Virus record (IMG/VR): IMGVR_UViG_3300045988_085935
Reading direction: 5' to 3' (one strand)
Length of the DNA stretch: 46,029 nt
DNA from: a virus
How positions within the stretch are numbered: the stretch's first letter is position 1; every line of letters starts with the position of its first letter. The position numbers were made by a program, and so were the translations under genes. The notes under the pieces are model-generated. The model ran no database searches and was not told the DNA's origin. It saw only the letters and a program-made list of their open reading frames with translations. Shown piece after piece: positions 13,585 to 30,900 of the stretch.

Positions 13585-14517
13585 ATGTCGAACACGGTCA
13601 TTACATGGAAAGATATCAAATTAGCCGCATTGCAGAAGATGTTTTCTGCAAACGGAACCACAATCCAGTTTGATTCCTCAAACTCTGAATATCTCTATGC
13701 AATGCCGAACACCGCCAATGAAGGTCTGCAAATGCTTGCTACGGCAGGCAAGTTCCTTCTTGGCGAGTATACGATTGTGAACAGGCCGATCAATCCGCTG
13801 AACGGTTCGTTTGAAAATGTCCAAATCACAGAAGGGGAGTACCGATTTTCCATAGACGGAGCGAAGTCTTATTACTTCCGCTGTGAAGGCGTATGCACGG
13901 TAAACATCGTGGTTGGAGATACCACGTTCAAGACCATTGATGTTCAGTCGAAAGAGAAGTATGCAACTTATAAGGGTAATATTGACAATCAGGAGGGAAA
14001 GAATGTTTCGCTTGTGTTCATTGCAGACTATCCGTGCAACATCAAGAACATTGCGCTTTATGGTGTTCGATACGAGACGGATGAAGATGTTGACGATTAC
14101 GAAGAATATCTGAAATTCAACATGGACGAACTGGTAGAAGACTTCTATCAGCTTGCAGAGAACCAGATTTACTTTGAGGGAGACGATGAACCGAAATACC
14201 TGGCTGCAACCGATTATTATCAGGAAGCAGACAAAACGCTTGTTATTCCTAGAAGCAAGGTCGGCGCATACACGGTCTATTACAAGAAGTACCCGAAGCA
14301 GATCACGTCAACCACTCCGGATGATTATGTATTGCAGATTGATCCGGAGGTTGCGGTTCTTCTTCCTATCTATATGGCATCCGTTTTGTACATGGATGAT
14401 GATCTTTCCATTGCAACATCATATCGAAACTATTTTGAAGTAGGTTTGAACAGGCTGTCTCAGAGGGCAGATGTCAGCAAGAAGGAAGAGTTTGTCAGTG
14501 AAAGTGGGTGGTGCTAA
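13585..14517 (+). CDS. Virion structural protein (possible head-tail adaptor)
   Basis: Lies after the capsid gene and is coupled by TAATG to the next gene. No family recognised. Confidence 0.35.
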   Translation: MSNTVITWKDIKLAALQKMFSANGTTIQFDSSNSEYLYAMPNTANEGLQMLATAGKFLLGEYTIVNRPINPLNGSFENVQITEGEYRFSIDGAKSYYFRCEGVCTVNIVVGDTTFKTIDVQSKEKYATYKGNIDNQEGKNVSLVFIADYPCNIKNIALYGVRYETDEDVDDYEEYLKFNMDELVEDFYQLAENQIYFEGDDEPKYLAATDYYQEADKTLVIPRSKVGAYTVYYKKYPKQITSTTPDDYVLQIDPEVAVLLPIYMASVLYMDDDLSIATSYRNYFEVGLNRLSQRADVSKKEEFVSESGWC

Positions 14518-16532
14518 TGGCTGAACAGCAGGCAACACAGTTTAATATACCATCTTCACCAACGCTGAAAGTATACAAGAATGATCGCTTCTTAGGTGCC
14601 GACTTTACTTCCGATGCATCAACTGTTGATGAAACGAAATCCCCAAACACTGTAAACATGATCCGATCTGTTCCGGGCAAAATCCGTAAAAGGATGGGGT
14701 ACAAAGAGATCGGTGATTATAAGCAGAGAATCTGGGGAATGCATCATCTTTCCACTACGGATATCTGGCTGATTCATGCAGGAGACAAACTTTATAACCT
14801 GTCTGCACCAAAAGGCCGTAAATGGGCCGCAGATAACAAGGAAGTTGTTACCGCTGACAAAGCAGAGAACATCATGCTTTTAACCGGAGATTATGAAGAC
14901 ACGATGATCTATTCCGGTATGGCTCAGCACCGTTCTGTTTCTCTTGAACTGTCTCAGAAACTAATCATTCTGGACGGAAAGAAAGCACTTATCTTTGATG
15001 GCTTCACGGTGAAGGATCTGAGCGATAACGCGTACATTCCTACTCTGCGAATTTCAGAGAATCCGGAAGGCGGTGGAAAAGACTACGAAGCACTGAACCT
15101 GTTACAGCCGGCGTGGCAAGAATGGTTTATCTGCGATGCTGACCATGCAAGCACGAAGGAATTTCAGCTTGCGTTTGGCACTACGGAATCACCTTTGGAC
15201 GATACGAAGGTCAAGGCGTGGCTTCTTAATGGTGATGGAGACTGGATAGAAAAGACAGAAGGAACCGACTTCACGGTTGACAGAACGAAGGGGAAGGTAA
15301 CTTTTGTAACAGCACCCGGAAAAACGCCGCTTGCAGGAGAAGACAACGTAAAGATTCAGGCATACCGAACGGTTAAAGGATACTCGGATAGAGTAAATCA
15401 CTGCACATTCGGAACGCTGTTTGGAGTAAACGGAGCACAGGACAGACTGTTCATTTCCGGTAATCCGGACAAGGGCGAAAATGAAGACGGAGAGCTGTTC
15501 ACATACATTTGTTATGACTGGTTTTCCGGTCAGTACGATCCTACTTATTTTGCAGACACGCACTATTCACAGCTCGGTTCAGACAGTACGGCGATTGTTG
15601 GTTATTCCATCATCAACAACTATCTGGCTGCATTTAAAGGCGGCAACGAGCAGTCGCAGGCTGTTCTGATTCGTGAAGGTGATATCACGGATGACGAGCC
15701 TACATTTAAGGTGGTAAACACGCTACAAGGCGTTGGGGCGGTCTCTCCTTACAGTTTTGCTTATCTTGAAACAGAACCATTGTTTCTTACGAAACTTGGC
15801 GTATACGCCATCACAGCGCAGGATATCACGGGTGAGAAGTATGCACAGAACAGATCCTACTATCTGGACGGAAAACTGACAGAAGAAGAGAACCTGAACG
15901 AAGCATACGGATTTACTTTCAAGGATTTCTATGTGCTTGCAGTGAACAGCCACGTATATGTTCTGGATGGTCAACAGCCAATGCAGACGGATAAGTCAAG
16001 GCCGTATGCAACCAGACAGTATGCCGGTTTCTATTGGGACGATGTTCCGGCCTCCGTGTTCTTTGAGTATGACAACACGCTTTGCTTTGGAGCGACAGAT
16101 GGAAAGATATATGCGTTTTACAAAGACAAGCACGAACTGGAATCATACAACGACAACGGCAAGGAATACGGTGCAATCTGGGAGACTGCGGACATTTCAG
16201 AACAGTTGTTCTACAAAAACAAGAATTACCGGTACCTTGCGATTCGGTGTATGCCGGAGATTGTTTCTTCCGTAGAAGTATGGGCGCAGAGACGTGGAAT
16301 CTGGGAGCGCATCAAAGAGGATGCTACAACACTGAAGTATTTCAGTTATCAGCATCTTACTTATTCCAAATTCACCTATTCAACAGATTCAACGGCTAAG
16401 GTATCGTCAACAAAAGTCCGGCTGAAGAAACTGGATCACGTTCGGTTCCGGTTTGAGAACAACCGTGTCAATGAGCCGTTTGGATTGAACGATTTTGCTG
16501 TCGAGTACACACAAGGCGGCAACCACAAGTAA
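14517..16532 (+). CDS. Large virion structural protein (possible tail nozzle/tubular protein B analogue)
   Basis: 671 aa, positioned between the adaptor candidate and the fibre genes. No tape measure, tube or sheath gene is seen in the genome. Confidence 0.35.
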   Translation: MAEQQATQFNIPSSPTLKVYKNDRFLGADFTSDASTVDETKSPNTVNMIRSVPGKIRKRMGYKEIGDYKQRIWGMHHLSTTDIWLIHAGDKLYNLSAPKGRKWAADNKEVVTADKAENIMLLTGDYEDTMIYSGMAQHRSVSLELSQKLIILDGKKALIFDGFTVKDLSDNAYIPTLRISENPEGGGKDYEALNLLQPAWQEWFICDADHASTKEFQLAFGTTESPLDDTKVKAWLLNGDGDWIEKTEGTDFTVDRTKGKVTFVTAPGKTPLAGEDNVKIQAYRTVKGYSDRVNHCTFGTLFGVNGAQDRLFISGNPDKGENEDGELFTYICYDWFSGQYDPTYFADTHYSQLGSDSTAIVGYSIINNYLAAFKGGNEQSQAVLIREGDITDDEPTFKVVNTLQGVGAVSPYSFAYLETEPLFLTKLGVYAITAQDITGEKYAQNRSYYLDGKLTEEENLNEAYGFTFKDFYVLAVNSHVYVLDGQQPMQTDKSRPYATRQYAGFYWDDVPASVFFEYDNTLCFGATDGKIYAFYKDKHELESYNDNGKEYGAIWETADISEQLFYKNKNYRYLAIRCMPEIVSSVEVWAQRRGIWERIKEDATTLKYFSYQHLTYSKFTYSTDSTAKVSSTKVRLKKLDHVRFRFENNRVNEPFGLNDFAVEYTQGGNHK

Positions 16533-16544
16533 TGAGGTTTTGAA

Positions 16545-17144
16545 ATGGCATTTACCCATATCACAGACGAAGACAGAAACGGAAAAGGAAATGTCGGAAG
16601 ATCAGACACACCACAGTTGTCAACGTATGAGATGCAGACCGTTCTGGACGAGCTTGCAAACCTTGCGATTGATGGACTGAATAAGCACATCACCGAAGAG
16701 GAAGCAAACACCGGAGCAATCAACATTGGTGCAACTGTTCCGACTGGATTTGAAGCGTCTGAGAACATCCAGAGTGTTCTAAATGCGATTGCGGCAAAGA
16801 CAAGAGATGTAGTCGGAGACAAGCATTCTCACGCAAACAAGGACACGCTGGATAAGATCACAGAAACATCCTTGGAAAACTGGGACGAAGTTGCAACGCT
16901 TCTTGGGGCTATTAAGACCATCCAGACAACGCTTGTATCGTCAACTACTGCAATTCCAACATCGAGCGCGGTTGCGAACTATATCAGTAATCTGAACTGG
17001 AAGAAGATCGTTCTTGACAACGTTTATCCGGTCGGAGCCGTGTACTTCACAACATCAACGGTTGATCCGGCAGACCAGTTCGGCGGTCAGTGGACAAAGA
17101 TAGAGTTTTCCGGTTCTGTGACTGCATACAAGAGGATTTCGTAA
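16545..17144 (+). CDS. Tail fibre/collar-domain protein
   Basis: The C-terminal YPVGAVYFTTSTVDPADQFGGQWTKI resembles the phage tail-collar motif. HSHANKDTLDKIT is a common fibre motif. Confidence 0.6.
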   Translation: MAFTHITDEDRNGKGNVGRSDTPQLSTYEMQTVLDELANLAIDGLNKHITEEEANTGAINIGATVPTGFEASENIQSVLNAIAAKTRDVVGDKHSHANKDTLDKITETSLENWDEVATLLGAIKTIQTTLVSSTTAIPTSSAVANYISNLNWKKIVLDNVYPVGAVYFTTSTVDPADQFGGQWTKIEFSGSVTAYKRIS

Positions 17145-17455
17145 TGCAGGAAGAAAAGCTAATCAACGGAACAACGGTTGGTTTCGAAAAAGGAACAAAT
17201 CTGGAAGCATCCTACTACATGGCAAAAGCCGCAATGGACAGGATCAGGTTCACGGAAGCAAAGATTGTCGGAGCAAACGGAGGAACAATCACGTTTGAGA
17301 ACGAAGCACTTGGCGAAGAGAACAAGACAGTAATTCCACAGACAACTGTTTATGGAGTAACGCCTACAGACATGACGGTAAAAGGCAACACTGCAACCGT
17401 CACCTTCGGGCAGTGGAACGTTCCGTTTGAATGCAGACTGATGATTATCAAGTAA
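17144..17455 (+). CDS. Small tail-associated protein sharing the fibre C-terminal domain
   Basis: TAATG coupling. The C-terminus TATVTFGQWNVPFECRLMI parallels TLTVTFGAQEKAFDVCVTV of the next gene. Confidence 0.5.
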   Translation: MQEEKLINGTTVGFEKGTNLEASYYMAKAAMDRIRFTEAKIVGANGGTITFENEALGEENKTVIPQTTVYGVTPTDMTVKGNTATVTFGQWNVPFECRLMIIK

Positions 17456-17465
17456 AGGAGCAACG

Positions 17466-18503
17466 ATGGCAGACACAATTAAAATATCGGAACTCACAGA
17501 GTATACCGCTGAAGTAACGGACAGTCTGCTGATTCCGTTGGACGATGGAACAAAAACATATAAGGTTCCGGTAGGACATTTCAATCAGGGTGCAGCGTCT
17601 TCTGCAAAAGCGTATGCAGACAAGGCAGCGTCTTCTGCAAAGAACGCCGCAGCCAGTGAAGACAACACAAAACAGATAGCACAAGAGATTACAACAAACA
17701 CCTCAGCGGCAAAGGACGCAGCGAAAGAAGCAGAGGACGCAAAGAATGCAACGGTTCAGCTTAAAGCTGATACAGAACGTGCGGTGGCGTCTATAAAGAC
17801 ATCTGTACAAAATGCATCGGACTCTGCACTATCTGCTGCTGATTCTGCGGACGATGCTTCTGATTCAGCCACATTGTCTAAGTCGTGGGCGACAGGTGGA
17901 ACCGGAAAAAGAGAAGACGAGGATGTAAACAATGCGAAGTATTGGGCTTCCATTGCGGGAGCTGCGGCAGGAGGAGGCGTTCTTTCCTTTAATGGACGTT
18001 CTGGTTTTGTAGTTCCGGCAGACGGTGATTATAAGTCTGAGCAGATTAAACGCGGAGATTCAACGGTAGAAGCATCCTTGACCGCATTGGAAGAGACCGC
18101 AGGCGATGCAACAAACGTACCGATTGGAACGGTTGTAGAAGCGGTGGAAGAGTATCCGGAAATTTTTTCCGGAGAAACAGCCGGAGTAATTTCTGGTAAA
18201 ACAAAAAAATTCCTAGCATCACTGAAACGTCTTATTGAGACCGTAGAGAGAGACCTTAAACTTCTTATCTCAAACGTTGATAAGAAAACATCCATAAGGC
18301 TTCCGGCGCAATCTCTTACTGCCGCAGGAGGATCTCTCACATTCACGGATGATTCCATCACAGATACGTCATTGATCGAAGTATACGCAACGATTCCTAA
18401 CATATCTCCGGAAATTTACTCTGTAACAGGAACAACACTGACAGTTACGTTTGGTGCTCAAGAGAAGGCGTTTGATGTCTGTGTGACAGTGAGGAAGGAA
18501 TAA
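17466..18503 (+). CDS. Tail fibre protein
   Basis: A/S-rich heptad-like repeats (ASSAKAYADKAASSAKNAAASE...). VLSFNGRSGFVVPADGDYKSEQI is a typical fibre motif. Confidence 0.75.
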   Translation: MADTIKISELTEYTAEVTDSLLIPLDDGTKTYKVPVGHFNQGAASSAKAYADKAASSAKNAAASEDNTKQIAQEITTNTSAAKDAAKEAEDAKNATVQLKADTERAVASIKTSVQNASDSALSAADSADDASDSATLSKSWATGGTGKREDEDVNNAKYWASIAGAAAGGGVLSFNGRSGFVVPADGDYKSEQIKRGDSTVEASLTALEETAGDATNVPIGTVVEAVEEYPEIFSGETAGVISGKTKKFLASLKRLIETVERDLKLLISNVDKKTSIRLPAQSLTAAGGSLTFTDDSITDTSLIEVYATIPNISPEIYSVTGTTLTVTFGAQEKAFDVCVTVRKE

Positions 18504-18760
18504 TGGCAACCGTAAACAAAGTAGCATTGGCAAACGGAACCGTCCTGATTGATCTTACTTCGGATACGGTCAAGGCTGAATCTGTTCTGGCCGGAGTAAC
18601 CGCACACGACAAAAGCGGAGCAAAGATTACAGGAACTCTGTTTTCGAATTTCCAGGACAGCATGGAGCTTACAGATTCGATTACAGATTCCAGTGGGAAC
18701 GCTGTTATGGACAGTTCTGGAAGTCGGATAACGGGGATAAGAAAGTACAAAATGGTGTAG
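18503..18760 (+). CDS. Tail-fibre-associated protein (85 aa)
   Basis: The N-terminus V.L.....LIDLT.DT..AE....GVTAHDKSGA.ITGT is shared with 18967-19554. Confidence 0.5.
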   Translation: MATVNKVALANGTVLIDLTSDTVKAESVLAGVTAHDKSGAKITGTLFSNFQDSMELTDSITDSSGNAVMDSSGSRITGIRKYKMV

Positions 18761-18762
18761 CA

Positions 18763-18963
18763 ATGGCAACGTTTTTCAACTGTGAAGGCACAGGCAACAA
18801 TCCCTACGAGGGAGAATACGAAGTAATACCAATGCTCAGCAAGGATCAGACTTTGCCAACAGCGAATAAAACAATGCGAAAAGATGTTACGGTTCACGAG
18901 GTTCCTGTCTATATGGTGTCGAATGAATCTGGCGGGTACACAGTAACAATATGTAAGGAGTAA
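18763..18963 (+). CDS. Hypothetical 66-aa protein
   Basis: Tightly packed in the fibre operon. Confidence 0.45.
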   Translation: MATFFNCEGTGNNPYEGEYEVIPMLSKDQTLPTANKTMRKDVTVHEVPVYMVSNESGGYTVTICKE

Positions 18964-18966
18964 AAG

Positions 18967-19554
18967 ATGGCAGAAACAAAAAAGATTGGAAAAGTAGTTC
19001 TCGGCGATGAGGTACTGATAGACCTTACTGCCGACACAATCACCGCCGAAGATCTCAAAAAAGGAGTAACAGCGCATGACAAGTCTGGTGCGGCGATCAC
19101 TGGTACAAACACAAAGGATGCAACAACGGAAGACGCAACGGCTGCGGCAGCGGAAATTCTTTCCGGTAAAACCGCTTATGTAAAAGGCGCAAAAGTAACC
19201 GGAACCATGAAAAACAACGGGGCTGTCTCCGGTGAGATTTCAACAGTAGCAGGAGCCTATTCTGTTCCGGTTGGATATCATGATGGTTCTGGAAAGGTTG
19301 CGATTTCTGCAACAGAACAGAAAAAGCTGATTGCTTCGAATATTAGGCAGGGAGTTACCATTCTTGGAGTAACCGGAACAATGTCTGGAACAGAGGGAGC
19401 AAAGGCGCAGGCAAAGACGGTAACGCCTTCTCTTGCGCAGAAAACGGTCACTCCGGACGCTGGATATAACTATCTTTCACAGGTTGTTGTTTCTGCAATT
19501 CCGGTAGCAAGAGCGGATAACCCATCGGGCGGTCAGACGGTAACGATTGGATAA
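18967..19554 (+). CDS. Tail-fibre-associated protein (195 aa)
   Basis: The N-terminus is paralogous to 18503-18760. The C-terminus KTVTPSLAQKTVTPDAGYNYLSQVVVSAIP is a recurring Firmicutes-phage fibre motif. Confidence 0.5.
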   Translation: MAETKKIGKVVLGDEVLIDLTADTITAEDLKKGVTAHDKSGAAITGTNTKDATTEDATAAAAEILSGKTAYVKGAKVTGTMKNNGAVSGEISTVAGAYSVPVGYHDGSGKVAISATEQKKLIASNIRQGVTILGVTGTMSGTEGAKAQAKTVTPSLAQKTVTPDAGYNYLSQVVVSAIPVARADNPSGGQTVTIG

Positions 19555-19562
19555 GGTGATTT

Positions 19563-19901
19563 ATGAGCAGAATAAAAGACTATACGGCAGTATCTACCAT
19601 CGGAACCTCCGAAAAGATGCTGCTGGATGGTGAAAACGGGACGAAGAGCATCACGGCGGAGAATCTTGCAAAAGCTCTTTTAGGATACTCGCTGAAAAGG
19701 CTTCCGGCACAGTCTCTCACAGCTTCCGGAGGGACGCTGACTTTCAAAGATGCGAGTATCACGAAGGATTCTTTGATCGAGCCGTATGCAACCATACCGA
19801 ACATCTCACCATCCAACATGACTGCATCCGCAGGCGTTTGCACAGTGACATTTGATGCACAGAGTTCATCTTTTGACGTGTGCATCACGGTAAGAAATTA
19901 A
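19563..19901 (+). CDS. Short tail-fibre paralog (N-terminal anchor plus C-terminal domain of 17466-18503)
   Basis: RLPAQSLTASGGTLTFKDASITKDSLIEPYATIPNISP...TVTFDAQSSSFDVCITVRN aligns with the last ~70 aa of the 345-aa fibre. Confidence 0.6.
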   Translation: MSRIKDYTAVSTIGTSEKMLLDGENGTKSITAENLAKALLGYSLKRLPAQSLTASGGTLTFKDASITKDSLIEPYATIPNISPSNMTASAGVCTVTFDAQSSSFDVCITVRN

Positions 19902-19914
19902 AAGGAGAAAAAGC

Positions 19915-20229
19915 ATGAAGACACTCAAGTTTAAGAACGGGAAAACATTTGATTTCAGAGACACGTCCACCATCAATACGCTGGTGTATGACTGCACAGC
20001 TTTTGCTGACCTGGATTTTATCAAGGCACAGTTCGAAGTAGCGGACAACCTCATCGGTGGAACTTTTGATGGTGAGCCTGTCACCGGAGTGGTATATACA
20101 GGAGCACAGGTAGAGCTTGCTGCCGATGGAGCTATCGTGGCTCGCTTCACCACCAGAGCCTACACCAACGATGAGATCGTCAACCAGAGATTGTCTGATC
20201 TGGAAGACACAGTAGCAGAACTGATCTAA
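19915..20229 (+). CDS. Hypothetical protein (104 aa), fibre-module accessory
   Basis: SD GGAGAAAAAG. Lies in the position where XkdW-like genes occur. Confidence 0.45.
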   Translation: MKTLKFKNGKTFDFRDTSTINTLVYDCTAFADLDFIKAQFEVADNLIGGTFDGEPVTGVVYTGAQVELAADGAIVARFTTRAYTNDEIVNQRLSDLEDTVAELI

Positions 20230-20242
20230 GGAGGTTACCAAT

Positions 20243-20575
20243 ATGCCATTCTATCCGTGCCGTGTGGGGGGGGGTAATAAACTGAAAAGTGCTACAAAAG
20301 TGTATGAAAATAGTACACAGAAAAAAGACACTCATACTTTCACAACGCAAAAAGGAAAAGCATATTCCATAACGATTCTTGAATTTAATGGATCATCTAG
20401 CGTGAAAGCAAGTTATTCCGATTGCGAGATATTGTATCAAGAAAAGGATATGATGAACACGACGTACTACGCAACATTACTATCAGCGGTTGTCGTTGCC
20501 ACTGGTATATCAGTTACAGTGAAGATGAGCGGTGGCATCGACTATCAAAATACAACAGTATATGAATTGAACTAA
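20243..20575 (+). CDS. PFYPCR-GGG family protein, copy 1 (in frame through a G9 tract)
   Basis: AGGAGG SD. The N-terminus MPFYPCRVGGGNK is shared with the two downstream copies. The body is AT-rich. Confidence 0.6.
   Translation: MPFYPCRVGGGNKLKSATKVYENSTQKKDTHTFTTQKGKAYSITILEFNGSSSVKASYSDCEILYQEKDMMNTTYYATLLSAVVVATGISVTVKMSGGIDYQNTTVYELN
20266..20274 (+). repeat. G9 homopolymer inside codons 8-11 of 20243-20575
   Basis: Nine consecutive G counted directly (cgtgt ggggggggg taat). Confidence 0.95.
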
Positions 20576-20587
20576 AGGAGATCAGCA

Positions 20588-20722
20588 ATGTCTAAAGCAA
20601 AAGCAAGGATTTTAGCAAGATGCATCTATCGTTGGTCTAAGACCATCGAGGACGTAGATGAGCAGTATCGTGATGCAGTGAGAGAGCAGTACCTGTTACT
20701 CTTCGGAGAGGAGCTGACATAA
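20588..20722 (+). CDS. XkdX-like small protein (44 aa, below the ORF-track cutoff)
   Basis: AAGGAGA SD. MSKAKARILARCIYRWSKTIEDVDEQYRDAVREQYLLLFGEELT resembles XkdX-family proteins (...Y..v....Y..i.GE..) found between fibre and lysis genes. Confidence 0.5.
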   Translation: MSKAKARILARCIYRWSKTIEDVDEQYRDAVREQYLLLFGEELT

Positions 20723-21141
20723 TGAGCTTCTATCCATGTCGTGGGGGTGGGAAGAATCTTCCATCAATAACTTATGGACAGATATCAGAATACGAATCGG
20801 CTAGCGGTATGCCGCATGATTATGATCTGAATATTTATTTCGGAGATCTGCATTGGACGGCAAGTGCTGCAAATACGTACATTTATATTTATCGTATAAG
20901 CGAAAAAGCTAAAAAGTACAAACGACTTAGAGCACAGATTTATTACCGGCATCAGCAAGGTTCAGGTTTTAATTTAACTGGTAAAAACTGCACATTGACT
21001 ACTGTTAGTAAAGAGGCAAGCGGAACTACTACAACATATGTTGTAGACATTACAGATATGACCGGAGATTACTCAACTATTACGATTGTCAACGGAAATA
21101 TTACGATGTCGGCAGGAATCGAAATCATCGAAGCAGAATAA
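20722..21141 (+). CDS. PFYPCR-GGG family protein, copy 2 (G run interrupted)
   Basis: MSFYPCRGGGKN. TAATG coupling to the XkdX-like ORF. The Gly codons read GGGGGTGGG. Confidence 0.6.
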   Translation: MSFYPCRGGGKNLPSITYGQISEYESASGMPHDYDLNIYFGDLHWTASAANTYIYIYRISEKAKKYKRLRAQIYYRHQQGSGFNLTGKNCTLTTVSKEASGTTTTYVVDITDMTGDYSTITIVNGNITMSAGIEIIEAE

Positions 21142-21151
21142 GGAGGACAAT

Positions 21152-21450
21152 ATGCCATTTTATCCGTGTCGGGGGGGGGTAGCAACAAAATGGTGGAAGA
21201 CAAGTTTGCGATAAGCGGAGCAACGGCCACCTATGACTATAGCAAGCACTTTAAGTCATACGATGACTTTGTAAACAGAGCCAGATGGGTGCTTTTTGTG
21301 CGCGATACGTCGCGCAGTGTCGCATACTGTGGGAACTGCGGACAGGGAATCGAGACAAAGAGTGCCACGGTGAGTCATGACAACACCACTGTCACGGTTA
21401 AACTGAGCACGACAGGAAGCAATATGGAAATCAATATAATCTGTTATTAA
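21152..21450 (+). CDS. PFYPCR-GGG family protein, copy 3, frame-disrupted at a G9 tract (phase-OFF state, slippage-dependent, or assembly error)
   Basis: AGGAGG lies 5 nt before ATG 21152. That frame stops after 20 codons. The 94-codon body is in the frame of 21166 and would be joined by G10 or G7. Confidence 0.55.
21171..21179 (+). repeat. G9 homopolymer at the frame break of copy 3
   Basis: Nine consecutive G counted directly (tgtc ggggggggg tagc). Confidence 0.95.
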
Positions 21451-21454
21451 CAAG

Positions 21455-21483
21455 ATCCCCGGCTATTGCCGGGGATTTATTAT
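21455..21483 (+). terminator. Intrinsic terminator after the fibre/PFYPCR operon
   Basis: ATCCCCGG-CTATTG-CCGGGGAT followed by a T-rich tail. Confidence 0.7.
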
Positions 21484-21541
21484 GCCTAAAAGAAGTGCTA
21501 TCATTATTTACACACTGCACCAAGCAGAAGGGGGTAACAAG

Positions 21542-22234
21542 ATGAAAAAAATGATAGCAACCTTTACGGCGATTCTGACAGCTCTTTCACTGGCACTTCC
21601 AATCACAGCGAATGCACAGACCATCACAGCAACCAGTGTGCCGAATGTTTTTGGTGGATACACAACCACTTATAACATTCAACCGACCTATAGACCGATG
21701 ACGTTTGCAGAGTTTGCGGCAAGAGCAACGGAGTATGCCCGTAGGCAGTATGACGCACAGAATCAGGCCGCATGGCAATACGCGATTGCAAACCCTCAGC
21801 TTTCCACGATTTCCAATGCACTAGGAATAAATCTATCGTTCGTTACAAACCAGATTTCGTTCAAGCTCAATGCAGACCACAGTGCGGCAACGGTGAATTA
21901 TCCGTTTGTCATTCAGAACAACAGCGCTGCCGTTTGGTATCCTGACCCATTTATGCTAACGGATGCTGCCGGCAACGTGTACCCGACAACTTCTATGGTC
22001 ATGGGGGCTGTTGCGATAGCTCCACATACAGCTCAAACTATCGGTGTGCAGTTTGTTGTTCCTTATAACCAATTTGGAAATCTTTGCTCAGTACAATTAT
22101 CGCAGAACTCTTTTAGCGATACACCGGAAGTAGTAAGTGATTTTAATACCATGAGCCTGGATCAACTTGTTACAAAGTATGGGGTTGGGAATATAAACGT
22201 GTGGAGCATTAACTCATCGACAATGTTGTACTGA
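21542..22234 (+). CDS. Secreted protein (moron) with a signal peptide
   Basis: AGGGGGT SD before ATG 21542. MKKMIATFTAILTALSLALPITANA|QT. Flanked by terminators on both sides. Confidence 0.65.
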   Translation: MKKMIATFTAILTALSLALPITANAQTITATSVPNVFGGYTTTYNIQPTYRPMTFAEFAARATEYARRQYDAQNQAAWQYAIANPQLSTISNALGINLSFVTNQISFKLNADHSAATVNYPFVIQNNSAAVWYPDPFMLTDAAGNVYPTTSMVMGAVAIAPHTAQTIGVQFVVPYNQFGNLCSVQLSQNSFSDTPEVVSDFNTMSLDQLVTKYGVGNINVWSINSSTMLY

Positions 22235-22373: not shown

Positions 22374-22760
22374 ATGGATAGACCAATAACGATCACTCCA
22401 TCCGAAATGTATACGGCGATCATGGCTGTTTGTGGAACGATCACTGCCGTTGCCGCAGCTATCGCCGTAATTGCGAAGGTGATAGAGCGTATGAGAAAAC
22501 CAAACAAGACACAAGACGCAAGATTAAACGAACACGAAGCGTGGTTAAAACGACACGACAAGAAGTTCGATGATTACGACAAATACCTGTCAAACGACAA
22601 AGCACGTCTTGATCATCTTGAGGGGTCAAATATTGCTTTTTCACGTTACATGCTTGCACTTGGCAATTTCATGATTGGAGCATCGGACAAGGAAGCATTG
22701 AAGTCAGCAATAAACAGGTTTCAAGAGTTCATTCTGAACGGAGAGGAAAGAAATGAGTAA
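22374..22760 (+). CDS. Membrane-anchored coiled-coil protein, lysis-cassette associated
   Basis: One N-terminal TM segment (AIMAVCGTITAVAAAIAVIAKV) followed by charged helices. Lies directly upstream of and overlapping the holin. Confidence 0.5.
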   Translation: MDRPITITPSEMYTAIMAVCGTITAVAAAIAVIAKVIERMRKPNKTQDARLNEHEAWLKRHDKKFDDYDKYLSNDKARLDHLEGSNIAFSRYMLALGNFMIGASDKEALKSAINRFQEFILNGEERNE

Positions 22761-22947
22761 TAAGGTATATGACATTCTGAAATGGGTAGCAATCATTGTT
22801 CTCCCGGCAGCATCTACGTTTGTAGCAACCGTAGGCCCTCTGTGGGGTATGCCAATGACGGACGCTGTTGCACAGACCATCACGGCAGTAGGAACATTTC
22901 TCGGTGCTGTTCTGATGGTTTCTACGGTGCAGTACAAGAAGGGATAA
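22753..22947 (+). CDS. Holin (small two-TM, Dp-1-like pattern)
   Basis: KVYDILKWVAIIVLPAASTFVATVGPLWGMP....ITAVGTFLGAVLMVSTVQY. 64 aa, immediately before the endolysin. Confidence 0.8.
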   Translation: MSNKVYDILKWVAIIVLPAASTFVATVGPLWGMPMTDAVAQTITAVGTFLGAVLMVSTVQYKKG

Positions 22948-22950
22948 CCG

Positions 22951-23835
22951 ATGGCATTAAACGGAATTGATATTGCATCGTATCAGAAAAGAATTGACCT
23001 CACTGCCGTTCCTTGTGATTTCGTAATCATTAAGGCAACGCAGGGAACAAAGTATGTTAATCCGGATTTCAGGAGAGCATACGAACAGGCAATCAACGCG
23101 GGAAAACTTGTCGGCGTATATCACTATGCATCTTCTGGCGGTGCTATCGCTGAAGCAGATCATTTCTTAAACACAATTGGAACTGCTGTCGGAAGAGCAA
23201 TTCTCTGCCTTGATTGGGAGAAGGGTGACAACGCCAATTTCTCAAATGTGGCTTATGCGCATAAATGGCTTGAGTATGTCAGAAGCAGAACCTGCGTTAC
23301 TCCGTTCATTTACATGAGCAAATCTGTCTGCCGTGCTTTCAACTGGAGTAATGTTGCCGGCCTGTATCCTTTGTGGGTGGCACAGTACGGAAACAGTTTA
23401 CCAACCGGATACAAGGTGTTCCCGTGGACTGATCGAGGTGGATACGGCGCATGGAAGTCATGCACGATATTCCAGTATTCGTCAACGGGACGATTAACCG
23501 GATGGGCCGGAAACCTTGACCTTAACAAAGCATATCTGACAAAGGAAGAGTGGCAGAGAATGGCATCCACTACGAAGAAGACCGAAGCAGCCGCAACCGC
23601 AGGAACCTATACCGCAGAAACCTATAAGGTTGGCTCTTATGATCTCTGTGATGTGAAGTATGGGGATCGCGGAGAGGTTGTCCGCTTCTTACAACAGCTC
23701 TTAAATGCAGAAGGATTCCCTTGTTCAGCAGACGGAATCTTCGGAGCCAAAACAGAAAAAGCATTGGCAGATTATGACTGTTCCATCCACAACATCAAGT
23801 GTGGAAAAGGAACATGGGAAAGACTCTTGAGGTAA
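22951..23835 (+). CDS. Endolysin: GH25 muramidase plus a C-terminal peptidoglycan-binding domain
   Basis: NGIDIASYQ, DFVIIKATQGTKYVNPDF and VGVYHYA are GH25 hallmarks. GDRGEVVRFLQQLLNAEGFPCSADGIFGAKTEKALADY is PG_binding_1-like. Confidence 0.9.
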   Translation: MALNGIDIASYQKRIDLTAVPCDFVIIKATQGTKYVNPDFRRAYEQAINAGKLVGVYHYASSGGAIAEADHFLNTIGTAVGRAILCLDWEKGDNANFSNVAYAHKWLEYVRSRTCVTPFIYMSKSVCRAFNWSNVAGLYPLWVAQYGNSLPTGYKVFPWTDRGGYGAWKSCTIFQYSSTGRLTGWAGNLDLNKAYLTKEEWQRMASTTKKTEAAATAGTYTAETYKVGSYDLCDVKYGDRGEVVRFLQQLLNAEGFPCSADGIFGAKTEKALADYDCSIHNIKCGKGTWERLLR

Positions 23836-23844
23836 GGAGGATAT

Positions 23845-24936
23845 ATGCGTGTAGAAACAATTACCGGAGGCGCGGTAAGTGGGAAAAGCAAAGTAGTAAA
23901 GAACAATCAGACCGGAGAACGCTATATCGTCTCCAACAGAACTGCCGCACAGAACGAAGCGGCAAACAAGGCATACTCCGGTGGTGGATCGCATTCGTCA
24001 AGAAGACCGTCTGGCGGTGGTGGTGGCGGTGGAACATCAAGCACAGGTGGTGCAATCAATAACGGGGCATCCGGTGGAGCGGCAGGAGCAGGATACAACC
24101 AGTCTTCCGGTTATACCGGCCCCAGCTTGTCCGATATCTATTCTCAGTACCTTGCAGGAATCAGAGCACAGGCAGAGGAAGCCTATAACCGTAAGATGGA
24201 TAACATTTCCAGAGCTTACGACAGCGCAAGGGGAAACCTCGATAACAATCTGAACGAGACAAGAAGACAGCTCACTGAATCCAGGGATTATTCCAACAAG
24301 AATATCAACGCAGACGCAGACGATTCTTTGAGACAGGCATACATCAATGCGATGCTCCAGAAAAAGAACCTTAGACAGAACATGACAGCACAGGGACTGT
24401 CTGGTGGTGCAAACGAATCCACTCTTGCTTCTCTTTCCAACAACTACGGAAACGCAAGAACAGATGTGAACACACAGAGAAACAGATCTCTTGCGGATCT
24501 GGAGCAGATGTTCAATACCAATATTTCACAGGCTATTCAGCAGTACAACAATGCCTTGTCCAGTCTGGATTTGCAGAGGATGCAGCTTGAGAACGCAGCG
24601 CAGGATGCGCTTGCAAACTACCAGACAGCGTATTCTGACAACATGGCCTACATTGCTCCAAGCAATGATGCTTATATATCTGCGCTCAATGCATTGCAGA
24701 ACAATCAGGCTAGCTTCTCGTTTGATCCTACGGAAGCGAATAATCCTTATGCACTTGCACAGATTCAGCAGGCACAGACAGGAGACACGTCTACGAACTA
24801 TGCGAAGCTGTTACAACAGCAGGCACTTAATGGGGCTAATTCCAGTCAGTTAAAGAGAATGGCATTCGCGGCACTTCAGAGAGGTGCAAACGCTCAGAGC
24901 CTTGCACAGACGCTTAATATGCTCGGTGTTGCATAA
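23845..24936 (+). CDS. Q/N/G-rich coiled-coil protein (possible internal virion/ejection protein)
   Basis: AAGGAGG SD 9 nt after the endolysin stop. Contains a Gly-rich tract, then long N/Q/A-rich helices. Confidence 0.4.
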   Translation: MRVETITGGAVSGKSKVVKNNQTGERYIVSNRTAAQNEAANKAYSGGGSHSSRRPSGGGGGGGTSSTGGAINNGASGGAAGAGYNQSSGYTGPSLSDIYSQYLAGIRAQAEEAYNRKMDNISRAYDSARGNLDNNLNETRRQLTESRDYSNKNINADADDSLRQAYINAMLQKKNLRQNMTAQGLSGGANESTLASLSNNYGNARTDVNTQRNRSLADLEQMFNTNISQAIQQYNNALSSLDLQRMQLENAAQDALANYQTAYSDNMAYIAPSNDAYISALNALQNNQASFSFDPTEANNPYALAQIQQAQTGDTSTNYAKLLQQQALNGANSSQLKRMAFAALQRGANAQSLAQTLNMLGVA

Positions 24937-24943
24937 CAATATG

Positions 24944-24971
24944 TGAGGGGCTTCGGCCCCTCATTTTTTTT
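24944..24971 (+). terminator. Strong intrinsic terminator between the 363-aa gene and the giant gene
   Basis: TGAGGGGC-TTCG-GCCCCTCA followed by T8. Confidence 0.9.
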
Positions 24972-24984
24972 ACAGGAGAAATCT

Positions 24985-27900
24985 ATGGTAAACAGAGACT
25001 TGCAGGCAGTAAAAGCGGCAATCAGTCAGCAGAACACAATGCAGAAGCGCATGGAAAAGATGCAAATGAGATCGCTTTATGCAAATAACACGGCTGAATC
25101 TCTTATCAAAGGAGCGAAGAAGGCAGGATATACCGTTCCGGCATCCGCATATCAGCCTGTTCAGCAGGCACCTCAGCAGTCTGGTGGAATTACGGCAGAT
25201 TCTTTGATGAAAGAATATCAGCAGTGGCTCAGTGAACAGCAGAACACACCGCAGGATCTTCCTTCCGGCGGTTCTGCCGGTTCTGGATACAGACAGACTT
25301 TAACCACACAGGATCAGCGGATTCCTTCGCTTATGGATTCTGTGAAGAACATGAGCAACGAAGATCTTGCAAAGCAGATCAACATTGCAAACATGGTGAA
25401 AGACCAGAAAGCACAGTCTCAGGAAGAACAAAGCAAGAATGTTGCTGACATTCTGTCCAAACTGAACGGCGATTCCTCTATGGTTGACAAAGCAAGACAG
25501 CTTCTCAATCAGAGGAACACTGACTACACCAGTCAAACCGGAAAGACAGACTACGATGAAGCTGTCCAGAGGACGTTACAGAGTGCGATTCCTTCTCTTG
25601 CAGGCAATCAGCCACAGACCACAGAAAACGCACAGAAACCGGCACAGACTAGCGCACAGGGCTATTCTAACGAGGCAATTGCCAAGATCATGGCTGACGC
25701 AGGAGGTGGCGATGAAACCGCGCTTCTCAACCAGCTCAACAACGATCCAGAACTCGCAAAGAAGGCACAGTCTGTCTTAAACCAGAGGGATTCCGACTAT
25801 GCCGCACTGACCGAAAAGAAAGCGGAAACACAACAGCCAGTTCAGCAGACCACACAGCGCACATCTAAGCAGGTCAAAAAGGCTCAGTCTGCCTATAAGC
25901 AGGCTCAGGTAGCAACACAGACCGCAAAAAAGAAACTGGAAACTGAACAGAAGAAAATTGACCAGAACAGTCAAAAGTTGCAGTCCTTGCAGAATAGCCT
26001 TGCAAAAGCAAAGAAGATCTCACAGAAGACCGGGCATTATGAACAGGTTGACGCCATTCAGCAGAAGATCAGGGGATTGCAGGATACGTCTGCGGATAAC
26101 GAGGCTTTCAAGAAGGCTACAGAGAAATACAACAAAGCAAAGTTCAACGAACGCGCCGCTAAACTCAAATTGGCAAATCAGGCACTTGAAAATCCAGTTG
26201 CAAAGAGTGGGAAAGTGCTTAACGTAACTGCAAAGCCGAACAACGATCAGACACTTTCTACGGCACAGAACCTTGTTTCTGCTGCACAGAACGGAAAACT
26301 TACAAAGTCACAGAAAAGCGAAGCTAAAACACTTGCGAAGCACTATGAAAATAAGATCAGAGAAGCAACCCTAAAAGGGAAGAGTGTTTCTGATGATGAA
26401 ATGAACACCTACACAGCACTCAAAAATGCAACATCTGCCGGAGCATCGTTTATGAGCGGTCTTGCAAACGCCTTTTCTACAACGAAGAGAATGGTGCAAG
26501 GTGTCGGAAACGCTATTGGCAAACTGATGGGAGAAGATAACGCAGGGGACAAACTCTCCCAGAAATTGCAGACAACACAGAACACAGCAAAAAAGCAGAA
26601 CGGCATTGCAAATGTTGCGGGGACAATGGCCGGAAAAGGCGCACAGTATGCGCTGTTCAATCAGCTTGCTAATGCCGCCGGATTAACTCCAGCTATTTCA
26701 AACACGATGAACAAAAAGCTCGGTTTGAATACGGCAAGCATTGCCAACACTGCAAAAGGAGTTGCCGGGAAGAAACTAACAGAACAGCTTGCGGACGTGA
26801 TTGTCGGACAGGCGGCAGATACCGCGTTTGATACGATCCCAACAATTATGGATAACGCATCAGCAGGCAAGTATGACGGAGACGCAGGACGGCTTGTTAA
26901 TGATGTGTCTGCAAACCAGATGAACAACCTTGCTATGAACATGGGAATGAACACAATTCAGAGCGGTGTTATTCCTTCTATTTCTGATGCACTTAATAAC
27001 CTTTTGAGCAAGGGACAGACTGCGGAGGATGCAGTTTCTAATATTGCAAAGAACGCAGGGCTTAACGTCAATACGGCGGATCTCAACTATCAGAGTAACG
27101 AGGATGCCGCAGAAGAAGCGCGTAGAATGCTTTCTGATGAGCTTGCAAGAAAACGGGTGGCTGTTCAGTCTCCGGAGGATGCGAACAAGGAAGCATCGGA
27201 CATTCTCAGCCAGTACATGAACGAAACCAGAGGGAAGGAGAACGTTCAGACTGGAAGAAACAATTTCATTAACAAGGCTCAGAACGCACAGTATCCGGAC
27301 GAACAGGCCGGTTCCATTGTTTCTGCCGCAAAACAGAACCAGTGGGAAAGCGGAATGAAACAGCTTGAACAGCAAGCAAACACCGATGCGATGATAAGAC
27401 GCTACGGAATAAACAGAGACGATCCGTATGCCGAAGTTGTAACAATGCCAACGTATGCAGAAATGGATAGAACCGTTAATAAGATGAAACAGGTTCGTCC
27501 AGACCTTGCAGACGAGATTGACAACATGGCAGAAACCATTGAACCCGGATATCTCAGGTATGTATCCAGCATGAAAAACGGTACCGAATCTGCATCTTCA
27601 GATCATAAGTTCGGACAGATTTATAAGGATGTTGGAACGTCTGACCTTGCCGGAGACGAGAAAATTTATCTCGGAGAATACAACGGGAAAAAGCCAATTG
27701 ATCCTTACACATCCTTGTCAAATTTGCAGAAGAATGTGGATAAGTTTGAGGAAAAGTACGGCGTGCAAGACGAAACCGTCAGGGAACTGTTGACGAAAGC
27801 AAAACGCGCCGTAAACGACATTGATGATGCTGTTGGTAATGGCAAATATGGTGTTGCCGGCGAAGCAATTGATAACTATCAAAGCGCAATGAAGGACTTG

Positions 27901-30900
27901 AAAAAGTACGCAAAGGACAACATTGATGGCTTTGACGCAAACGATATCAATCTTCGTTCTGTGTCCGGTTCTTCAAACAACATTTGGAACTATCAGAAAC
28001 ACCGTGTACAGAAGTCCAACGAGGTTTATAATCCGGATGCTTATGCAGGAGAGCCGGTCAAAAAAGCGGTAGGGGAAAGCAAGGAAATTCCTTCCATCAA
28101 AGACGGTTCCGATTGGAATCCGAACAAGAGAATCAGTGAGATTCTTGGGCGCGATGTAACAATGGCATCCGATATGGATGTTCCAAAGAGCGATACTATT
28201 ACAAGTAAGGTTCCCTCTGATACAAAATCAGTTTCAAAAGTCGCAAAAAAGGAAGAGATTCCCTCTATTTCTATTAACGATGGGGCAAAAAAGGATACAA
28301 ACGTTGATGAGTTGAACAAGCGCGGACAAAATGCGTTTGATCAGCTTGTTAATGATGTAAAAAAAGCCGAAGGTAAGGCAAACGACATCCCCGATATAGA
28401 CAATGGCAAGGTGTATACCACACCCGGAACGGCAGAAAAGGAAGTTGATCCGGAAGATGCAGTAGACCTTATGTCGGAACGCATGTCGAAGCGTAAGAGC
28501 AAGACGGACAACGAAGGCTATATTGGAAAAGGCTATACCAACACTATCAAAAATTCCGGTCTTGCCACGGATGAGCAGTATGTGAAGGGCCTTGACGAAC
28601 AGACACGCCACTTCACTGTTTCGGAGAAGGAATCCTTTGAAACTGGTAAGGCAATCTATGATAGCAATCCGAGGGCATTTGTTCAGAAATATTCTTCTTC
28701 CATGGGAAAAGATCAGCTCAAGGCCCTCGGATCGTCTGATGTTGATGCAATGCACATTGCTTATGGAAAGCTGAATCAGATGGCAAAGAACGCAACCGAT
28801 CCGGCAGAAGCAGAGAGCCTTAGAAGACAGGCTTCCAGCATTGCACGTAATCTTACGGATGCGCAGCACTATAACGCTCAGACGTTGCAGGCAAACGCGA
28901 AATGGAGAAACAACATTGACGGTGCGCTGATGTCTGCTGACGGAACAATGAAACGCCTTCGCGATGAAGCACTTTCTCCTAAAGAGCATAGTCAGATTGA
29001 CGATGCATCACAGAAGATTTCTGAAATGCTCAAGAAGATGCTTGATGGAAAGATGGAAACAACGTCAGACAATCAGCTTGCATGGCAGGAAGTGAAGAAA
29101 GCCCTTGACGGTTACTCTCAGCTTAAAGGAAAGTTTACAGACAAACAGATTCAGAACCTTACGGATTCTGTTCTGAAAGACAAAGACTGGAACGGCATTC
29201 AGGATTTTCTTGAAATGCAGATGACCGGATACGGCGGTGTTTCTTCGGAAGCAATCGACAAAGCGACAATGCTTTTCGATGAAGCACAGAAGCATGGTTA
29301 CAATTCCAGAAAGTACATGGATCTTGAGCAGGAAGCATACAGCGTACTTGCTAAAGATATCCAGTCTCAGCCGGGATATAAAGGTGCATCGTTCGGGCAG
29401 AAGTTAGATTCTTTCCGTTATCTTATGATGCTTGGAAATCCGAAGACGCAGGTAAAAAACATCGCAGGAAACGTACTGTTCGGCAAGCTCACAAACCTTA
29501 AAGACGATATTGGTGCGCTCATTGAGACTTCCGTTGATCGTGCGAACAAGGCGTCCGGTGGCAAAGGAATACAGAGGACAAAATCCATTCTGAATCCGCT
29601 TAGTGAGAGCGATAGCAGACTTGTTTCCGCTGCAAAAGAATATGGTGAAGAATACGCCGCAAGGGCACTGTCTGGAAACAAATACACGAATCCGGGAGTG
29701 GAACTGGACAAGGCACTTTCAACCTTTGGAAACGGAAAGGTCGGAAAGTTTATTCAAAGGCTGTCTGACTTAACAACAGAATCGTTGGATAAAGCAGATC
29801 AGAAAGCAATGATGAACAAGTATCAGAATGCTCTTGCCCGTTATGTGAAGGCAAACGGGAAAGACGTTTCAATCTTTTCTGATACATCACAGGAAGCAAA
29901 AGACTTCCTGTCTATGGCAAGTGATTATGCTGTTCATCAGGCAGAGGAAGCAGCGTTCCATCAGGACAGCAAGCCTGCGTCCGGGCTTACAAACTTTGCC
30001 ACAATGTTAAAGAATGGAAACATTGGAGATAAAGCGGCCGGTACACTCATTGATGCAACAGTTCCATTCAAAAAGACACCAATCAACGTGTTAAAATCAT
30101 GCCTGCAATACAGTCCGGCAGAATATTTGTATGCCTTTGCTGACGCATATAAGCTCCATCGTGGCGAAATTGATGCGGCAAAGTTCATTGATGACATGGC
30201 AAAAGCAACAACCGGAACAACAATGTATGTTGTTGGAGGTATTCTTGCCAACGAGGGTATTATCCGTATCGGTTCCAACAAAGGGACAAAAGAAAAGAAC
30301 ACAGACACAAGAACCGGCGTGCAGAACGGTGCGTTGTATATTGGCAACCACAGTATTGATCTTTCAGACCTTGCTCCGGCAGCGTATCCGCTTATAGCAG
30401 GCGCAACGTTCCAAGAATCATTCAAAAATGAAGAGGACTTTAAAACGGCTATTATAAAGGCCATCTCAAGTTCTGCATCAAGCCTTGTTGAGACCACGAT
30501 GCTCATGGGAATAAACAACATCCTAGAGTCCGTAAAGTATGCAGATCAGGATGAAAGCGGAATCACTTCCGTTGGTAAAGCCGTAGCGGAAAGCTATGCA
30601 GGGCAGTTCCTTCCTACACTTGGCAGAGCGATCAACTCTACCGTTGATGATACACAGAGAAGTTCCTACTCAAGCAAAACCGGAGTAGGGAAAGAGGTTG
30701 AAAGCACAGCAAAATACCTTGAAACAAAAATACCTGGCTTACAGCAGGTTGGAGATTGGGCTGATAAAAACAACATCCCCGTTCTTAACAAGCTGAAACT
30801 GCAACCGGCTATTGATGCTTGGGGCAACGTAAAGAAGCAGAACAGTGTCGGCGTGGATGCCTACACTGACAACAAGGTAGCAAACGCAGTCGGAAGAGGT

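Follow-up and report, generated by a model that had tools for sequence, protein, structure and literature searches.

Hypermutable poly-G tracts occur in the genes for receptor-binding proteins (RBPs) of Campylobacter Fletchervirus phages (Sorensen et al., Cell Rep 2021, 35:109214; as related in bioRxiv 10.1101/2025.10.21.683753 and PMC10579305). According to these accounts, runs of G7–G11 lie in genes of the host-recognition module, several per genome, and set each gene ON or OFF by their length, which results in mixed progeny. A 2025 preprint reports repeat-driven switching more generally for T-even coliphages: in T2, T4 and other coliphages, homopolymers of at least 6 nt give reversible frameshifts, viewed as bet-hedging, and these repeats are scattered over all gene classes but under-represented in tail-fibre genes (0.77x; Gomez, Barrick, Waters, bioRxiv 10.1101/2025.10.21.683753). 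Here we describe a cassette of three small genes at positions 20243–21450 of the IMG/VR virus record IMGVR_UViG_3300045988_085935, a temperate phage genome of 46,029 nucleotides (the window). Each gene opens with the same short peptide, the head, followed by a stretch of glycine codons, which in two of the three genes is an uninterrupted run of nine Gs. Comparison with its relatives shows that the length of this tract differs between near-identical genomes, that the polymorphism is limited to long tracts, and that the bodies encoded behind out-of-frame (OFF) tracts are intact and under selection.

The cassette family is undescribed, and its carriers are temperate phages of gut Bacillota. A literature search found no relevant paper on the motif itself, nor any report of poly-G or phase-variable tail genes in prophages of Bacillota, the gut or Clostridia. 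The Fletchervirus phages, as portrayed in the above sources, are lytic myoviruses of a Gram-negative host that is itself rich in poly-G switches, and their proteins have no sequence relationship to those of the cassette. Unlike in Fletchervirus, the tract here belongs to a seven-residue head that over 20 unrelated small bodies have in common, and members that are fixed ON occur in the same family; a functional effect on host recognition is described as demonstrated for Fletchervirus and would be a prediction for the cassette. A 2025 gut-phage paper lists poly-G tracts only among the features that might underlie a broad host range, not yet tied to a range of that breadth.

Bacterial contingency loci, such as the surface genes of Neisseria, Haemophilus and Campylobacter, resemble the cassette in having a homopolymer near the 5' end of the coding region, all three frames represented among strains, and otherwise intact OFF alleles. 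They differ from it in that the present tracts are borne by a virus or prophage, and in that head and tract form a portable module shared by unrelated bodies. Invertible fibre segments (Mu G and P1 C, with Gin and Cin) and the diversity-generating retroelement of Bordetella phage BPP-1 likewise vary the receptor-binding end of the tail among the phages of one population; unlike these, the cassette has no inverted repeats or invertase, and its genes would be turned on and off by frame rather than by swapping or mutagenesis of a C-terminus. We therefore rejected inversion or shufflon-type switching: all heads are direct repeats on the + strand, no recombinase lies within 16.5–24.9 kb, and the sole integrase is at 35180–36211.

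The cassette and its common head

The three copies consist of the following elements (RBS, ribosome-binding site; ORF, open reading frame):

20230–20234, + strand: GGAGG, RBS of copy 1
20243–20575, + strand: copy 1 gene, 110 aa, N-terminus MPFYPCRVGGGNK; head, Gly linker and predicted all-beta body
20243–20265, + strand: copy 1 head, MPFYPCRV, from the ATG to codon 8
20266–20274, + strand: copy 1 poly-G tract, G9; body in frame (ON)
20588–20722, + strand: 44-aa ORF between copies 1 and 2; its stop overlaps the ATG of copy 2
20722–21141, + strand: copy 2 gene, 139 aa, from ATG 20722; N-terminus MSFYPCRGGGKN
20743–20751, + strand: interrupted tract of copy 2, GGGGG-T-GGG (GGGGGTGGG)
21152–21214, + strand: head frame of copy 3 in the OFF state, from ATG 21152; MPFYPCRGGVATKWWKTSLR, 20 codons, stop at 21212–21214, GGAGG upstream
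21171–21179, + strand: copy 3 poly-G tract, G9; body in the +2 frame relative to the ATG (OFF)
21180–21450, + strand: copy 3 body, 90 codons, stop at 21448–21450, internal ATG at 21190

The initial annotation of this stretch had described three genes with a shared head, an unbroken G9 in copies 1 and 3 and a broken tract in copy 2, and the sequence bears this out. It was also right that G9 keeps copy 1 in frame and that copy 3 stops after 20 codons, where G7 or G10 would rejoin the body to ATG 21152. Copy 2, because its tract is interrupted, appears stably in frame, or 'locked ON'.

The two G9 runs are the sole G runs of at least 6 nt in the whole 46-kb window, in which C6 occurs only once. 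Shuffles that preserve dinucleotide composition lead one to expect 0.15 G9 runs, and two were reached in 3 of 100 shuffles. Both runs, moreover, fall on codons 8–10 of genes with the same head, a shared codon position that is beyond chance. The three bases behind the tract (20275–20277, 21180–21182 and at all family loci) are almost without exception T-A-(A/G), which gives GGT AAx or GGT AGx when the gene is ON, so that one extra G puts TAA or TAG right after the Gly codons.

In their heads, the three genes are the paralogs that they had been taken for, but the term does not extend to their bodies. In profile-profile comparisons (hhalign) of the three protein families, the heads align, and only the head does so confidently; the two alignments of the copy 3 family reach 24–30 columns into the body with low identity and low per-column confidence, and body-wide homology among the three body families was not detected by this method. 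The description of the genes as AT-rich applies only mildly, with 38–47% GC in 300-nt windows over 20243–21450 (~47% for copy 3) against 45.5% for the whole stretch. The 44-aa ORF had been called XkdX-like, a label that has to be dropped, as there is no match to XkdX (PF09693) or any other Pfam family even at E<=10; neither Pfam nor PHROG yields a family at E<0.1, and the PHROG matches are at chance level only. The conserved 3' end of this ORF (..TTCGGAGAGGAGCTG.CATAATG) is the RBS and overlapping start of every MSFYPCR-type gene.

We collected relatives by scanning public viral, genome and metagenome contigs for the DNA pattern of the head, which yielded dozens of loci, and added the contigs of database homologues; most of the contigs so obtained are short-read assemblies (Illumina/SPAdes or Logan). 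Relatives are referred to by L numbers and database proteins by P numbers; chance matches of the pattern scan (L007, L010, L012, L014-L017, L020-L022, L024, L036, L052, L053 and L056) were left out. The result is a set of 105 non-identical genes of the same build: a head with the consensus M-(P/S/A)-F-(Y/F)-(P/R)-(C/A)-(R/K/G), a Gly linker and a variable body of 76–151 aa. In a looser scan, poly-G follows heads of the types M(P/S)FYPCR, MPFYRCG and MAFYRCG, and mixed Gly codons follow M(S/P)FYPAKGG and MPFFNT..GG heads. Codons that have little in common spell the same residues of the head (AGA and CGT for Arg, TCN and AGY for Ser, and CCA, CCG or CCT for Pro), so that the constraint on the head acts on the protein and not only on the DNA. 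More than 20 mutually unalignable bodies are found behind this common head. One and the same body may also follow different heads, as the body GKKIV.EE.SYSW does with PCR, PAK and RCG heads.

Tract length and reading frame across the family

The relationship between tract and frame was evaluated for these 105 genes, all of which have an intact body:

Tract of G5 or shorter, interrupted, or of mixed Gly codons: 34 genes, 34 in frame
Tract of G6: 5 genes, 1 in frame
Tract of G7–G12: 66 genes, 20 in frame (30%)

Frameshifts are thus confined to tracts of at least G6. The contrast between long and short tracts is strong (Fisher 5.6e-13), and the 20 of 66 long tracts that are in frame do not differ from one third (binomial p=0.70); the out-of-frame long tracts place the body in frame +2 in 32 cases and in frame +1 in 14. 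Long G runs are also largely private to this family: of 86 runs of at least 7 nt in 438 kb of related loci, 83 lie within 40 nt after a head, and the remaining three are one RBS tract of a single lineage. Coliphage repeats are scattered; here, long G runs are nearly all in one cassette family and absent from the rest of the window.

That RBS tract precedes the signal-peptide gene downstream of the cassette. In the window it is a G5 (21530–21534, + strand), as in six other relatives, and the same site has G10 in L058 (11368–11377) and L059 and at least G11 in L060 (2603–2613), whose contig ends inside the run. The expanded tract may tune translation of the signal-peptide gene in this lineage.

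Orthologous genes differ in tract length and frame. A search for ON and OFF length variants in related genomes had been suggested for the locus, and they exist: copy 3 orthologues with 96–99% identical flanks have G7 and are ON (L061, L062, L063) or have G8 and are OFF (L064, L065), next to the OFF G9 of the window. The product of such a G7 ON allele is on record as P0040 (98 aa, MPFYPCRGGSNKMVEDKF). Bodies orthologous to that of copy 1 occur behind an out-of-frame G9 in a different upstream context (L023) and behind G7 (L043). Likewise, the 'GKIKYTTKTF' body is preceded by G7, G8 and G9 and also by GC-G9 and GC-G10, and the 'GNGIDPDK' body by G7, G8, G9 and G11. Contigs that hardly differ otherwise show this as well: L060 and L058 have no mismatch over 2612 nt and tracts of G9 and G12, L026 and L042 are identical at 566 of 566 positions with G8 and G9, and L040 and L041 at 954 of 960 with G7 and G9. 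Tract changes thus outpace substitutions.

At the same time, the OFF bodies are open over 76–122 codons, with the tract as their sole lesion. Median dN/dS values are 0.22 for ON-ON, 0.30 for ON-OFF and 0.25 for OFF-OFF pairs, and the copy 3 body gives 0.18 against L064, values that point to purifying selection on bodies that are out of frame. Frameshifts limited to long tracts and intact, evidently selected OFF bodies lend support to the slipped-strand contingency switch proposed in the initial annotation.

Two contigs of a single assembly (ERZ1026872), L026 (start of its reverse complement) and L030 (end of its reverse complement), overlap by 77–78 nt across one head and differ there only by G8 versus G9, at 5–7x coverage. 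It seems that the assembly graph came apart here at a tract whose length varies within the sample.

The proteins and their genomic setting

AlphaFold2 (AF2) models were analyzed for the first two copies. The model of copy 1 (pLDDT 83) has eight strands and disordered residues 1–12, and that of copy 2 (pLDDT 71) a beta-sandwich over aa 36–139; both bodies are thus predicted to be all-beta sandwiches with disordered head and linker. The best PDB folds for copy 1 are BppL of phage Tuc2009 and its receptor-binding head (5e7t_H, 5e7t_G, 5e7f_G), with a probability of 1.0 and TMq of 0.54–0.56 at E 0.016–0.07, i.e. below significance, whereas copy 2 finds only weak and generic matches to carbohydrate-binding module (CBM)/jelly-roll or mu-homology folds. 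Foldseek returned nothing at E<0.001 against PDB and BFVD, and sequence searches of PDB found nothing. Like the predicted body of copy 1, the BppL head (Tuc2009/TP901-1, P335-type, lactococcal; 5e7t, 5e7f) is a small beta-sandwich, and its place is distal on the tail of a phage with a Gram-positive host. In contrast to copy 1, which has only the seven-residue head and the Gly linker, BppL is anchored as a trimer by shoulder and neck domains, and the two share no sequence similarity.

No signal peptide or membrane segment was found in the cassette proteins. For this reason we rejected the idea that they are lipoproteins, and also because FYPC does not constitute a lipobox and PAK heads have another residue in place of the Cys. 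Given the distal position of the genes, the diversity of their bodies and the sub-threshold similarity to an RBP head, we infer that the tail displays these bodies as alternative heads for the binding of receptors or carbohydrates, and a role in host range is plausible.

In sequence space, the family is very narrow. Copy 1 has 11 homologues at 61–78% identity plus one identical sequence; all 23 database homologues of copy 2 are full length, with variable patches on an otherwise 84–96% identical frame; and the body of copy 3 is found in proteins P0040-P0048, which are 81–99% identical. A profile search with the copy 2 family in 1.84 billion representatives retrieved four true relatives and one repeat-protein false positive. 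The three cassette proteins match no Pfam or PHROG family at E<=0.05, a distant blastn search against GenBank phages gave no match, the look-up of contigs by exact protein has none on record for copy 1, copy 2 or P0001, and a scan of viral contigs with the copy 3 body gave no confirmed relative.

Several called proteins have no in-frame head (P0004, P0006, P0007, P0009, P0011), and on out-of-frame members gene callers have set false starts, such as MICHFIRVVGGG.., MGGGNK.., MWGGTK.. and MVEDKF.. (P0004, P0006-P0012, P0038, P0045-P0048). Public protein sets therefore hide both the head and the frameshift.

In the window, the cassette is embedded as follows:

7733: large terminase
9222: portal
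12332: major capsid protein
13585–20229: structural and fibre-like genes, followed by the cassette
18967–19554, + strand: 195-aa phrog_13589-like protein (PHROG match 3.1e-53)
19563–19901, + strand: 112-aa protein
19915–20229, + strand: 104-aa protein
21455–21476: G+C-rich hairpin ATCCCCGGC-TATT-GCCGGGGAT, with TTTATTAT next on the + strand
21542–22234, + strand: signal-peptide protein, from ATG 21542, the next gene after the cassette
Within 22374–23835: 128-aa ORF without family match, Dp-1-type holin, GH25 endolysin
After the lysis genes: ORF of 2347 aa, its 2347 codons uninterrupted
35180–36211: integrase

In every case, the cassette lies between fibre or baseplate genes (5') and holin and lysin genes (3'), and it does so in two different backbones. 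A syntenic relative, with 94% identity, is found on a 68-kb contig in the NCBI assembly 'Bacillota bacterium HCP3S3_E9'. The second backbone is represented by L041, where genes for 194, 112 and 104 aa and the cassette follow each other in the same order in a siphovirus-type genome with Dit and minor-tail genes (Dit/Tal). The distal tail or host-recognition position just before the lysis genes, which had been suspected from the window, thus recurs in a different backbone. In divergent loci, nucleotide similarity to the window is mostly limited to ~19554–20750. The 195-, 112- and 104-aa genes and the cassette travel across backbones as one distal module.

The hairpin at 21455–21476 looks like a terminator that closes the cassette; an identical one stands 3' of the last cassette gene in L058, L013 and L005, and a scan reports the one in the window on the - strand only. 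The content of the cassette itself is also exchanged. Copy 1, the 44-aa ORF and copy 2 (20129–21119) are swapped for other genes in the otherwise 92–96% identical relatives L061 and L064, the right breakpoint falling within copy 2, ~20 nt short of its end and closely 5' of GAATAAGGAGGACAAT-ATG, the conserved junction in front of copy 3. Such breakpoints indicate cassette exchange via recombination at conserved boundaries.

Further observations concern the surrounding genes. The C-terminal ~70 aa of a 345-aa protein (17466–18503) resemble the 112-aa protein (19563–19901) in the pattern LPAQSLTA.GG.LTF.D.SIT.DSLIE.YATIPNISP, and the N-terminus of an 85-aa protein (18503–18760) is like that of the 195-aa phrog_13589-like protein (18967–19554); the genes of the fibre region therefore seem to be internally paralogous. 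Between them, a 66-aa ORF (18763–18963) begins with MATFFNCEGTGNN, recalling the head variants MPFFNT..GG and MSFFRCG..GG, and matches phrog_31538 (unknown function) at 7.8e-13. It may be a degenerate family member. Between capsid and fibre genes (13585–17144), no tail tube, sheath, tape-measure, Dit or Tal family was detected. The lysis genes are followed by ORFs of 363 and 2347 aa (23845–31986), the larger of which has a relative in L064 with the Pfam domain LPD3. The virion may be short-tailed, with a giant injected protein.

Weighing the explanations

The comparative pattern is that of a slipped-strand contingency locus, and as such is well supported. We put the probability at roughly 0.6 that the cassette family undergoes phase variation at the DNA level through its hypermutable poly-G tracts, with bodies that probably vary what the virion displays. 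The genes combine a strong RBS, a conserved N-terminal head, a Gly linker and an interchangeable body of 76–151 aa. In about two thirds of the members, the linker is an uninterrupted G7–G12, which would act as a hypermutable simple repeat to which slipped-strand mispairing adds or from which it removes Gs during replication, be it as a prophage or in lytic growth. Each gain or loss would change the frame of the body relative to the start codon, which lies seven codons upstream, and linkers of mixed codons (GGT GGA GGC) would be fixed ON. In the window, copy 1 would accordingly be ON with G9, copy 2 fixed ON, and copy 3 OFF with G9, the ON allele of its relatives being G7. With the head as a putative common docking peptide, a lysate may then be a mix of virions that differ in adsorption, a form of bet-hedging on host range.

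Several points weigh against this reading. The sole hint of variation within a sample comes from L026 and L030 with their low coverage; the other evidence is between genomes, and some of the 'independent' identical contigs are possibly the same data deposited twice (IMG/VR and ENA, or NCBI and Logan). If recoding rescued every frame, one would just as well expect a third of the tracts to be ON. Of the 66 long tracts, 29 are G7, which falls one short of the ON length G8, and this excess could reflect a -1 slip in translation or transcription as part of normal expression. Lastly, none of the fold matches is significant (E 0.016 at best, TM 0.4–0.56).

Among the alternatives, the one with the best, if still small, prospects retains the phase variation and denies the proteins a place in the virion: they might act as chaperones in fibre assembly, or be accessory proteins of the 'moron' or anti-defence kind whose genes occupy a variable hot spot ahead of the lysis genes. 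Accessory genes are commonly inserted there, the proteins are small, their family is very narrow, and no family or significant structural match assigns them a function. However, they have no signal peptide or membrane segment, and their genes, which have strong RBSs, are closely linked to those of the fibres, with a hairpin only after the last gene. Furthermore, the cassette moves with the 195/112/104-aa module across backbones, and the bodies are predicted beta-sandwiches with variable patches, whose nearest fold is an RBP head.

A somewhat less probable account is recoding, in which RNA polymerase or the ribosome slips on the G run, so that full-length protein is made from any tract length and the length of the DNA drifts neutrally. 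It would explain why the long tracts show the neutral ON fraction of one third and why bodies are conserved whatever their frame in the DNA. The commonest length, G7, also fits, since the G8 product is exactly what would result from a -1 P-site slip on CGT GGG GGG GTA, as does the +1 state, where TAA or TAG right after the Gly codons is reminiscent of stop-stimulated +1 frameshifting (+1 at GGG-TAA, with G9). Programmed sites, however, hold one frame relation in all orthologues, whereas here the same bodies are found in frames 0, +1 and +2; a fixed programmed frameshift, raised as an alternative in the initial annotation, is thus a poor fit to the comparative data. RNA folding of 80 nt downstream reveals no unusually stable structure (z = -1.8, -1.4 and -1.7 for the three tracts), and no Rfam element was found. 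In addition, one third of the members use mixed Gly codons and are always in frame, which suggests that the protein can be made without a G run. Recoding and switching do not exclude each other either, as low-level slippage of RNA polymerase or ribosome could make the OFF state leaky.

We consider it improbable that translation of copy 3 starts internally at ATG 21190, with the G run as RBS, and yields a product that lacks the head. The G9 ends 10 nt before this ATG, a bare G5 serves as RBS of the next gene in the same phage, and Met13 is invariant in the copy 3 family, with gene callers starting four homologues there. Internal initiation is conceivable for copy 3 only, since there is no Met close to the tract in copy 1 or in most of the other bodies. 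Moreover, head-bearing ON alleles of the same gene exist, and the head is conserved as protein, so that a headless product would lack whatever role the head has.

Homopolymer miscalls or assembly artefacts, with all true genes in frame, are very unlikely. Long G runs are error-prone on several platforms and several of the contigs have 2–7x coverage, but this would require an erroneous consensus at 46 of the 66 long tracts, including those of contigs at 11–560x. Separate data sets agree in OFF lengths (G8 in L064 and L065, G7 in L009 and L054), tract differences of 2–3 nt occur, and the other homopolymers of the window break no ORFs, the one of 2347 codons being intact; this explanation, too, had been considered from the start and fits the comparative data poorly. 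Finally, that the out-of-frame copies are decaying pseudogenes is hardly credible, for although copy 3 and many relatives are truncated 9–24 codons after the ATG, every scored OFF body is open over 76–122 codons with the tract as sole lesion, OFF-OFF dN/dS is 0.25, and members without a long tract are never disrupted.

Phase variation through poly-G may be taken one step further, which we do tentatively, as the following is rather less probable than the switch itself: the seven-residue head could be a universal docking peptide that, together with the poly-G linker, forms a portable and switchable plug-in, by which phages of different tail types attach receptor-binding heads that can be interchanged. 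The plugged-in genes would switch at random, also while a silent prophage is replicated, and one lysogen could thereby release virions with many combinations of adhesins, while fixed-ON versions would arise by recoding of the Gly linker.

To our knowledge, Campylobacter phages are the only ones in which experiments have shown that repeats switch host-recognition genes on and off. If the proposed phase variation is true, it would extend this mechanism to temperate phages of gut Bacillota, and in a more organized form: a switch with a shared head before dozens of unrelated bodies, present in several copies per genome, with recoded stable versions alongside switchable ones, and in a module that is exchanged between phage backbones. 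About two thirds of its genes are truncated or given a wrong start by gene callers, so that the family is under-annotated. If its bodies do bind receptors, the cassette would offer a testable explanation for the variable or broad host range of gut prophages.

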